Made by a program: the position numbers. Of a DNA stretch of 13,045 nucleotides, positions 9,001 to 12,000 are shown piece after piece. The stretch lies in assembly GCA_043779265.1 (NCBI GenBank), contig JAYWEM010000036.1:1-13045 (forward strand), given 5' to 3'. Each line of letters opens with the position of its first letter. Within the stretch, counting starts at the first letter, position 1. Origin of the DNA: a bacterium. GTDB lineage: Bacteria; Eisenbacteria; RBG-16-71-46.

Positions 9001-12000
9001 ATGGTCTCCGTCGCCGAGCTCCCGACGCAATTCGGGCAGTTCCGTGCCGTCGCGTTCACTCCTGATGAACGAGGCGATGAGCACATCGCCATCGTCCGAG
9101 GCCAGGTGCGCGACCAGAAGGACGTGCCCATCCGCATCCACTCGGAGTGCCTGACCGGGGATGTCCTCGGATCGCTTCGGTGTGACTGTCGCGAGCAACT
9201 CATGGGCTCGCTCGAGATGTTGGGCGGCATGCCGATGGGTGTGCTGCTCTATCTCAGGCAAGAGGGCCGCGGCATCGGGCTGACCAACAAGATCCGCGCC
9301 TACGCACTGCAGGACAGTGGGCACGACACCGTCGAGGCCAACCACCTGCTGGGGTTCGGCGATGACGAGCGCAACTACCGAGTGGCGGCCGAGATGCTGC
9401 AGGCGCTCGGAGCCACGAGCGTGCGCCTGTTGACCAACAATCCGCGCAAACTCGATGGCCTGCGCGAGCACGGCATCCGAGTCGTCGGACGGATCCCGCT
9501 CGTCATCTCACCGACGCGGCACAACGCTGGCTATCTGCTCACCAAGCAGAAGCGCTCCGGGCACTGGCTCAATATGGTCGAGCGACCAGCGAATCACGAG
9601 CCGACGAAGAACGAAGCCAAGGAGACGAGCCTCGCGCCAGCGGAGGCAGGCGGTTCGGGCCGCGTGGTCACTGCCGTCCTTCCTCCCAAGCTAAGAGGGC
9701 GGAAACGGCACGCCTGAGAAGTTCGCCGGCCATGACGCGCGAGAAGCGTGTGCACAGATGGTGTGCGCCATGGCCGGCGTGAAGTTCGCGGTCCGTGCGG
9801 ACGACTCACCCCCGAGGAGAGCGGGCGCGAGTGCCACACAGCGGACCGCGATAGCGTCCGGACCGCTGCGTGGCACTCAACTGGCTGCTGCCCACGCCTC
9901 GGAGTGCATGGGGTCGCTCGGGTTCCGATGGGTGTGGGCCAGACGCGCGCGCGTCTTCTCGAGTCGGAGCGGACTGACGGTCTCGACCGCATAGCGCTCG
10001 TCCCACAACAGATTGCCTCGCATCCAGACACGCAGCTCGGGGTGATCGAGCATGAGCGTCATCGTCGTGCGGCCCTTCATCTCGCGCACCGCACTCGCGA
10101 TGCTCTGAGTGGGGCGAAGCGCCATCAGCACATGGACGTGGTCGTGACCCGAGACCACCTCGATCAGTTCGTAGCCGCGGTCCTCGCACGCCTGCTCGAT
10201 CAACCGATGCAGCGACTCGAGATGGCGCTCCTTCAGGACGGGCCGACGGCCCCGCGTGCTCCAGGTGACGAGGTAGTGAAGCTGACTACGGTAGACGGGC
10301 TCCCAACGATCCATCAGTGCGTCCTTCACCTGCGGCGCCAGATCGAGTTCCACGGTGCCACCTCCTGCGGGGATTTCGGTGAACAGATGTGCAGTGCGGG
10401 GGTGAGAAGAACGGGAGCGAGTGCGACTCGCTCCCGTCGGGGGATCGTGGGTCAGCGGATCGTGCGCATGACGCCTCGCACCACACCCAGGATGTGGAAC
10501 GATTGCTCTGCACTGACGACGATCGGCTGGTACTTGGTATTGGCTGCGACGAGTTCGATGCGTCCGCGCTTCGGCTGGTAGTACTTGACCGTCGCCTCTT
10601 CCTCGAGCAGAGCCACGACGATGTCACCGGCGCTCGCCTCGGAACGCTTCTGGACCACGACGTAGTCGCCTTCGAGGATGCCCGCATCGATCATCGAATC
10701 GCCACGGACCTGGAGTGCGAAGAGGTCGCGCGTCTCGCCGAACAGTCCATCGAGCTCGAGCGAGCCCGAGAAGCTCTCCTCGGCGGTGATCGGCTGGCCT
10801 GCGGCGACGCGACCGAGGATCGGGATGCCGATCGCGGCGTTGTCGCGCCGGGTCGAGGCGATCCCTCGCGAGACGCCGCGCTTGATGCTGATCATCCCGG
10901 CTTTCTCGAGCATGTCGGTGTAGTAGCGGACGCCGTTGGTCGAGGTGATCTGGAACGCGACCCCGATCTCACGGATCGTCGGGGCCGATCCGCGCTCACG
11001 CCGGAACTTCTGGATGAAGCTGTGGATGTCTCGGGCTCTCTGATTGAGCATGTCGTCCTGACCTCGTCGGAGAACTGGTCCGCGGCGCGGACCCGGCACG
11101 TCCGGCACCGTAGTGCACGCTTGTGCAGTCCGTCAAGAGGTTTTCCCGTGGGCCGGATCAGGCTCCGATCGGGCTTCGCCTGAAGCTCGTCGAAGGACCG
11201 CCGTCAGCGACCGGGAGCGGACGCCGAGTGGGAGGCGGCGCTGTTGCGGCACAAGGCTCGGGCGCAGCCACGGCCCATGGCATCACGATTGCTTTGGACC
11301 AAGGCGAGGCCGGAAGGCCTCGACCACGACGACGAGCAGCGGCACGTGTACCGGAGCTCGGAGGTTCGTCATCGGGGGCCGATCGTCCGAGAACGGTCGC
11401 CGCCGACTGCTCGTCGAAGTGGGAAATCGCAGGCTCAGCGCCAGTCGAACGTGAATCCCGCTGAGAAGTTCCTGGGAAGGCCCGCCTCGAAGTAGCGGCT
11501 GCTCACGCCATTGATGAACACGGATGACACATGGTCCTTGTCGAGCAGGTTGTCGCCCGAGACGAACGCCCGGACCGATCGGCCCGCCCACTCGCCGCGC
11601 CAATCGAGGCCCGAGCCCAGCACGCCGTAACGAAGGGTGCGCGCCGAGTTCGCATCATCGGCGAAGTAATCGGTCGCTCCCTCGAGGCTCGCCCGGATCG
11701 AGAACCCGCCGCCGACACGCACGTTCCCCGTGGTCGAGAAGAAGACGCCGGGGAGCCCGGGAACGCGCTTGCCCGCGAAGTCGCCCAGTTCGTTTCGGTA
11801 CTCGACGTACTCGTTCTCCGACACAGTCGTCGCGCCGCGCAGCGTCACCGAGTTGGTCGGCGTCCAGTCGAGGGCCAGTTCGAGCCCGCGTCGCCGCGAT
11901 TCGCCCGCCGTGAAGAAGTACGCGCCGCCATTGAACGGCACCACCTCATTGGCGACATCGATCCAGTAGAGCGCGGCGTCGTAGCGCAATCCACCGGCGC

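Follow-up and report, generated by a model that had tools for sequence, protein, structure and literature searches.

A tyrosine-less IS200/IS605-type TnpA kept behind lexA with its own LexA-type box in one bacterial order

The window, a stretch of 13,045 nucleotides from a bacterium of the Eisenbacteria (contig JAYWEM010000036.1, positions 1 to 13,045; source genome G000), carries a transposase-like gene, tnpA*, directly behind lexA. It very probably represents a domesticated TnpA that has lost its nucleophile and lies inside the LexA regulon. For the function of the protein, the chances are about even that it serves as an SOS-induced accessory that binds ssDNA or hairpins without cutting them. 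A more complete proposal is offered tentatively and has somewhat less than an even chance: tnpA* would be a pseudo-transposase of the SOS response with ssDNA hairpins or stalled forks as its targets and DUF6504-DinB as its partner, and a tail imitating the tmRNA tag would set its timing.

Fold, distribution and inheritance of tnpA*

The genes at the core of the locus are as follows.

10452..11051, minus strand: lexA (TIGR00498, 169.3 against a cut-off of 110.95)
9877..10353, minus strand: tnpA*, a Tyr-less IS200/IS605-type TnpA (Y1 HUH fold) of 158 aa, assigned by profiles, AF2 and Foldseek
10361..10366, minus strand: ribosome-binding site of tnpA*, AGGAGG

The tnpA* frame (9877-10353, minus strand) opens with GTG; lexA shares its strand and ends 98 nt before it. 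The Y1_Tnp domain and the fold of IS200/IS605 transposases are both present. The protein passes the cut-offs of both transposase families, with 79 bits against PF01797 in a profile search and 78.1 against NF033573, whose cut-off is 55; the latter reproduces what the genome-wide survey's note had reported. It scores 38.4 against NF047646, the RAYT model, and fails the cut-off of 80. An AlphaFold2 model (pLDDT 86, from a 46-row alignment) has the ISDra2 and IS608 TnpAs as its top Foldseek matches (E 2.6e-11), with 26-28% identity to ISDra2 TnpA. An ESM Atlas search returned only Y1_Tnp clusters. The protein is neither an active IS200/IS605 transposase nor a RAYT.

How widely is the gene kept? 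The order, whose members are uncultured, consists of the window's family (f1) and two other families (f2 and f3). A search of 206 genomes of the phylum found tnpA* in 80 of the 88 other f1 genomes, in 10/10 f2 genomes (9/9 without the unpublished genome G073) and in 3/3 f3 genomes, nearly always once per genome, in keeping with the survey's description of a single-copy, vertically kept gene. Seven of the eight f1 genomes without it also lack a lexA match, and in the eighth lexA is cut at a contig end. G000 has a single copy, and more than one match occurred in just three genomes. Two of these, G082 and G119, carry an ordinary Tyr-bearing TnpA-type gene besides tnpA*. The third, G095, has three lexA-tnpA* loci (L051-L053), two of them with a frameshifted tnpA* and a poor lexA match, probably reflecting a strain mixture or read errors. 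One tnpA* frameshift was seen in G162. Six weak matches in other orders were ordinary TnpAs or fragments.

Searches of wider scope gave a similar picture. In a pattern-seeded scan across all genome representatives, 85 stretches were confirmed and 80 kept, 56 of the latter titled Ca. Eisenbacteria. Spread outside the order was considered for five records with other labels. These share the lexA and EamA neighbours and the G+C content, and were read as mislabelled or misbinned. In a search of 50% representatives only the tnpA* clade lay above 1e-30. No relative of tnpA* was confirmed on viral contigs, and the eight plasmid matches listed were all ordinary TnpAs, 28-36% identical.

The position of the gene is equally constant. 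The loci read number 70 in f1 (from 68 positive genomes out of 81), 9 in f2 and 3 in f3. lexA lies upstream on the same strand in 70/70, 8/9 and 3/3 of them, respectively. The lone f2 exception begins at a contig end. The placement directly behind lexA that the survey had noted thus stands in 81 of 82 loci. The same arrangement was found in 80/80 loci of the scan, which come largely from the same genomes and are not independent. An RGGAG sequence lies less than 25 nt from the tnpA* start in 68/70 f1 loci. Signs of mobility, namely variable sites, a patchy range and subterminal end hairpins, are absent.

Further evidence of retention by the host comes from substitution patterns. In f1, the median pairwise dN/dS was 0.30 for tnpA* and 0.33 for lexA; the tnpA* value comes from the 2026 usable pairs among 2145, after four loci that contained N or frameshifts had been set aside. 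In f2 the tnpA* value was 0.50 (28 pairs). Simple counts of this kind run high in G+C-rich DNA, and it is therefore the comparison with lexA that matters. Differences were biased to third positions in f2 and f3. In a tree of 176 sequences that included the nearest 50% representatives, all tnpA* formed one clade (FastTree support 0.91) with the topology f3,(f2,f1), and only 4 of 32 well-supported splits conflicted with the LexA tree. The single copy, the vertical inheritance, the purifying selection and the lack of IS ends and of close viral or plasmid relatives all favor domestication.

A decaying IS relic without protein function is, by the same evidence, highly improbable. The stepwise loss of active-site parts described below, the frameshifts in the two extra G095 copies and the one in G162 would fit such a relic. 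However, the open frame, the ribosome-binding site and the box are kept order-wide, dN/dS equals that of lexA, and the third-position bias extends to f2 and f3.

What follows tnpA* differs among the families. dinB comes after it in 12/12 f2 and f3 loci, with DUF72 in 11 and DUF6504 in between in at least 6; in locus L031, tnpA* overlaps DUF6504. In f1, DUF6504-dinB lies away from lexA in 25/25 loci (none within 1.5 kb) and has a box of its own. In G148 and G138, whose assemblies are single contigs, the distance exceeds 1 Mb. The gene downstream of f1 tnpA* is mostly a convergent EamA gene (59 loci). Because f1 keeps tnpA* with dinB elsewhere, the retention of tnpA* is neither a spacer role nor a by-product of dinB expression. 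Among 20 lexA loci from other orders of the class, a profile search found tnpA* in 0/20 (best E 1.9). DUF6504 and/or dinB comes directly after lexA in 10/20 of these outgroup loci, and the same exact box is present in 10/20. Since the outgroups have lexA-DUF6504-dinB without tnpA*, the simplest history would have the order's common ancestor start out with the SOS cassette and acquire a tnpA gene by insertion behind lexA, ahead of DUF6504-dinB-DUF72. As a separate observation, lexA-DUF6504-dinB-DUF72 (L209-L221) looks like a class-wide SOS cassette, and DUF6504 had no mention in the literature searched.

The neighborhood of dinB also invites a different model, in which tnpA* is a protein adaptor, an SOS-induced scaffold for DinB, DUF6504, the sliding clamp or RecA that tunes translesion synthesis, with nucleic-acid binding secondary. 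Its support lies in the 12/12 sister-family loci where tnpA* comes first in the run with dinB, in the overlap in L031, and in residues that are invariant specifically in the tnpA* clade (W17, E18, R90, R108, W110 and R130). In addition, IS608 TnpA is thought to contact DnaN (PMC6006769), a putative interaction that would suit an adaptor. On the other hand, outgroups have the DUF6504-dinB run without tnpA*, the residues best conserved with active TnpA are still there, and a QL[SD]LF-like clamp motif was not seen at the C-terminus. The adaptor model is accordingly rated as rather unlikely, and nucleic-acid binding is the preferred reading.

Active-site losses and retained residues

Two positions define what is left of the active site.

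9943..9945, minus strand: Arg137, which a gapless profile alignment matches to the catalytic Tyr of ISDra2 (Y132)
10132..10140, minus strand: HUH motif H72-V73-H74, kept in f1 only

The profile alignment of tnpA* with ISDra2 runs through helix D without gaps, and Arg137 corresponds to Tyr132, which is F in the Y132F chain. Arg occupies this position in 120/120 top database homologues (the window's own protein included), and Arg or Lys does so in 67/70 f1 and 9/9 f2 proteins. A Tyr within 22 residues of the TVS motif was found in 0/68 f1 proteins (two frameshifted rows left out) and 0/9 f2 proteins. The control found the catalytic Tyr in 5/5 ordinary TnpAs. The three f3 proteins (3/3) stop at the Trp that precedes helix D, so that the helix itself is absent. 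The survey had reported that the Y-x3-Q helix is missing, and the count of 0/77 for f1 and f2, with the register set by wild-type and Y132F ISDra2, agrees with this.

The survey had also raised the possibility that the conserved Tyr of the WDERY motif substitutes for the lost one. This candidate was rejected as a replacement nucleophile. The WDERY Tyr aligns with the Tyr of WNPSY in ISDra2, which is itself present in the Y132F mutant chain, and 91% of 104 active-type TnpAs have a WDERY-type Tyr together with the catalytic one. Judged by these alignments, it is a structural residue of the family.

The metal site has been lost unevenly. H-x-H is present in 68/70 f1 loci, in 0/9 f2 proteins (which read DRVH, TQIR or GQVR) and in 0/3 f3 proteins. 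The survey's statement that all sequences keep H-x-H therefore holds for f1 and fails for the sister families, and its emphasis on a retained HUH metal motif falls with the orthologues of two families that lack it. A metal-binding Gln is essential in IS608 TnpA (PMC6006769, PMC5934647); Gln is outside the six commonest residues of the corresponding f1 alignment column. The beta-strand residue His28 is His in 95% of active-type TnpAs and Leu in 87% of f1. Other positions are strongly conserved in f1, including D71 (92%), H142 (69/70) and H44 (100%), and near-invariant D71, H72, H74 and H142 may form a metal site there. In a profile alignment, H142 falls on a His that is already present in ISDra2.

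Does f1 tnpA* cut DNA without a Tyr? MOB-V relaxases employ a His adduct, and D71, H72 and H74 together with H142 could bind a metal in f1 and cut ssDNA either hydrolytically or via such an adduct. The conservation of H-x-H, D71, H142 and H44 in f1 is the argument for a Tyr-independent nuclease of this kind. It is nonetheless an unlikely reading, because the HUH is gone from the orthologues of two families and helix D from one, H142 aligns with the ancestral ISDra2 His, and the Gln ligand and His28 are lost. IS608 TnpA, moreover, is inactivated by the loss of H64, H66 or Y127 (PMC3597680). That each family has lost different catalytic parts argues that catalysis is not what selection keeps in tnpA*.

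Residues retained in common with active TnpA are K/R93-G94, R34/R36, W117, Y121 and P105. Of these, K93, G94 and R36 presumably contact DNA, as judged from TnpA structures and from conservation. P81 and T125 are kept in f1 and f2 and correspond to P73 and T115, which are dimer determinants in IS608 (PMC3479197). A point against the binding role is that the net charge of the core in f1 (+5) hardly exceeds that of active TnpAs (+4); in f2 it is +10. Arg or Lys at the Tyr position would fit a side chain that binds phosphate without attacking it. In IS608, the Y127F protein was inactive and yet formed the DNA complex normally (PMC3597680), and a passage of PMC6006769 describes an affinity of TnpA for fork-like DNA. 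The f3 proteins lack strand 5, helix D, P81 and several basic residues. The described dimer and DNA surface is thus not universal, and the f3 protein may dimerize differently.

Dimerization bears on one more alternative, in which tnpA* is an anti-transposition decoy, a dead TnpA that is made when ssDNA abounds and that would interfere with active IS200/IS605 transposases by poisoning or blocking them. TnpA functions only as a dimer whose sites are composite, and heterodimers with mutant subunits lose reaction steps (PMC3597680). The retention of dimer determinants in two families would suit such a role, but the identity of tnpA* to ISDra2 TnpA (only 26-28%) is against it. Other PF01797 genes were found in 8/94 genomes with tnpA* (7/93 without G073) and in 12/104 genomes of other orders, a weak comparison with no clear difference, since MAGs under-assemble IS. 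A decoy is therefore considered improbable, and the preferred reading is that of a binding protein without an enzymatic role.

LexA-type boxes, hairpins and the C-terminal tail

The features outside the catalytic core are listed below.

11114..11127, no strand assigned: autoregulatory box of lexA, TGCAC-N4-GTGCA
10380..10393, no strand assigned: LexA-type box of tnpA*, TGCAC-N4-GTTCA
10411..10437, minus strand: terminator-like 12-bp hairpin with a pyrimidine/T tract, between lexA and the tnpA* box
9829..9878, no strand assigned: inverted repeat with 20-nt arms at the tnpA* stop, between the convergent tnpA* and ribA
9880..9900, minus strand: 7-residue tail [ED]-x-[LWFM]-A-x-A-[SG], tmRNA-tag-like, a putative degradation signal

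The box consensus is a 5-4-5 palindrome, TG(C/A)AC-N4-GT(G/T)CA, which we take to resemble the Fibrobacter box. The survey had parsed the tnpA* copy as TGCACA-N3-GTTCA. The letters are indeed present at 10380-10393 on the minus strand, and they are better read as the palindrome. An exact box was found in the 200 nt upstream of tnpA* in 64/70 f1, 5/8 f2 and 1/3 f3 loci, and a box with one mismatch in 10 of the remaining 11 loci of the three families. Control windows had an exact box in 0/70 coding and 0/70 downstream cases, with at least 2 mismatches in the best of them. Upstream of lexA, the exact box was found in 68/68 f1 loci with enough flank, 8/8 f2 loci and 1/3 f3 loci. It also precedes DUF6504-dinB in 25/25 f1 loci (18 exact, 7 with one mismatch), and recA of G000 has a box with one mismatch. 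The core SOS genes include lexA, recA and dinB (PMC8565304). Genome-wide, the 8 exact sites of G000 compare with an expectation of about 13, and because there is no enrichment, the weight of the case rests on position and not on abundance. From the palindrome common to the lexA, recA and dinB promoters, tnpA* is likely a member of the SOS (LexA) regulon, and LexA would be predicted to bind its box. A sigma-70 promoter scan called none.

Other exact boxes in G000 lie upstream of a DinB/YfiT-like gene (G000:C100:20483) and an mraZ-like gene (G000:C179:34306), both labelled by reading their translations; these are possible further members of the regulon. Another lies at a second DUF6504-like paralogue (G000:C139:3231-3518), which is divergent from a tyrosine integrase that presumably is integron-like. 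This box was considered as an integron-integrase box and was not counted for the integrase, as it sits about 30 nt before the divergent DUF6504 paralogue. Weak DUF6504 paralogues occur in most f1 genomes.

The hairpin between lexA and the box suggests that tnpA* is probably a transcription unit of its own. The terminator-like pattern was found in 52/70 f1 loci and, with its T tail, is unique within G000. The consensus terminator scan did not call the hairpin at 10411-10437. A GGGAG-type arm is present in 57/70 f1 loci, with a conserved GGGAG/CTCCC stem whose distance from the box stays within 15-19 nt. The other inverted repeat, 9829-9878, is probably a terminator. Its sequence is not conserved, no further copies were found in G000, and across loci it has no likeness to the upstream hairpin (9.6 within genomes against 9.2 between them). 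Apart from chance 14-19-mers, the flanks of tnpA* are not repeated elsewhere in G000, and no REP-like hairpin family was found in that genome as a target for the protein, which counts against the proposed binding role. The flanking hairpins were thus rejected as REPs or IS ends, with no genome copies and no left/right likeness. A second inverted repeat (9724-9779; 15-nt arms, 93%) lies just past the ribA stop.

The fixed spacing of the upstream hairpin, maintained at a dS of about 0.9, and the uniqueness of its T-tailed pattern in G000 are what could be cited for an autoregulatory hairpin binder. According to this model, the GGGAG/CTCCC hairpin is a relic IS left end to which tnpA* binds, as DNA or as RNA, so as to adjust read-through or the amount of LexA. 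However, the loops vary freely and are followed by a T tract, as in an ordinary intrinsic terminator; the hairpin is absent in genus g17 and altered in part of f2; and the left and right ends have no likeness. These points make autoregulation quite improbable, and the ssDNA/hairpin-binding accessory remains the preferred reading.

The f1 proteins end in a distinctive tail. [LWFM]-A-x-A-[SG] closes 65/66 intact f1 proteins and 116/120 homologues. A crude gene filter applied to G000 gave 2069 ORF ends, of which 2 have the motif, tnpA* itself included. Among 66 tails, position -7 is E/D in 56, -5 is L/W/F/M in 66, -4 is A in 65, -2 is A in 66 and -1 is S/G in 66. Five genomes have tmRNA tags of the sequence ANEQMALAA, ADEQLALAA or ANEQLAFAA, and the tail matches the pattern of the host tag except in the last residue (S/G instead of A). 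By this resemblance the f1 tail is a putative degradation signal, and the protein is probably short-lived. The degradation signal of E. coli RecN is a parallel. The f2 and f3 proteins lack the tail.

A proposed mechanism and its relation to known systems

How might a transposase have become part of the SOS response? The proposal begins with an IS200-type transposase gene that would have inserted behind lexA, come under LexA control and been domesticated as a non-cutting protein. DNA damage would lead to LexA cleavage and to transcription of tnpA* from its own promoter, and in the sister families DUF6504-dinB would be co-transcribed with it. The retained TnpA dimer and DNA surface, with Arg or Lys in place of Tyr, would bind fork-like DNA or ssDNA hairpins and leave the strands un-nicked, and the bound hairpins and forks would be shielded or shaped for damage tolerance. 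In f1, the tmRNA-tag-like tail would then remove the protein after the response ends.

With the IS200/IS605 TnpAs (ISDra2, IS608), tnpA* shares the fold, the length, the W..Y strand 5 and the KG motif, and in two families also the dimer determinants. It differs in lacking the catalytic Tyr and Gln, in having lost the HUH in two families, in being a single fixed copy with no element ends and no tnpB neighbor seen, and in having a LexA-type box, a new N-terminal W-x-P motif and a C-terminal tail. TldR proteins are nuclease-dead TnpB repressors. As with tnpA*, an IS200/IS605 protein without catalysis is kept by the host for binding; TldR, however, derives from TnpB and is RNA-guided, whereas tnpA* derives from TnpA and is under putative LexA control, and no guide RNA was seen for it, though no search for one was made.

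TnpAREP/RAYT has been called the first domesticated transposase of prokaryotes (PMC8266576). RAYT (PDB 4er8) retains both the HUH and the Tyr, lies between REPs and is monomeric (PMC3479197). Like tnpA*, RAYT is a TnpA derivative retained by the host; unlike it, tnpA* falls below the NF047646 cut-off, has no REP family and is catalytically stripped. In other words, the best-known domesticated TnpA keeps its chemistry and tnpA* does not. Another point of comparison is provided by the SOS mutagenesis cassettes lexA-imuA-imuB-dnaE2 and the dinB operons (PMC8565304). These, like the tnpA* locus, are LexA-controlled clusters with a Y-family polymerase, but they have no TnpA-derived member, and the word "transposase" occurs 0 times in the main text of PMC8565304.

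A TnpA family survey set aside sequences without the HUH or Tyr as probably non-functional (PMC6006769). tnpA* belongs to this deficient type and is constrained like lexA across a whole order, which means that an "IS200 transposase" annotation can conceal a host gene. No description of it was found in the literature searched, which covered few subscription journals and no supplements. If the proposal is correct, a catalytically dead Y1 TnpA has turned into a core DNA-damage gene and represents a new class of SOS gene, and one that binds ssDNA or the tolerance machinery would be a new SOS accessory factor. The locus would also offer a natural experiment, and a clean one, in the conversion of a selfish enzyme into a host gene, with the insertion, the separate active-site losses and the gain of a degron readable across one order. 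A LexA box and regulon that can be put to the test are a further outcome, in a lineage for which the literature searched had no description.

Another part of the window (95-8844) presumably begins with mnmE-mnmG-rsmG-parA-parB, followed by a bactofilin, an aspartyl-protease/PDZ protein and EamA, a gene set usual near the replication origin. Two other kinds of unusual TnpA were seen. P0179 is a Y1_Tnp domain without the HUH (QLQ) and the Tyr that is fused to sigma-70 region 4; it falls outside the tnpA* clade and may therefore be a dead TnpA that was exapted independently. P0129, P0168, P0189, P0235 and P0237 are two-domain TnpAs of about 280-295 aa in which domain 1 has the Tyr without the HUH and domain 2 the HUH without the Tyr, giving one composite site per chain.
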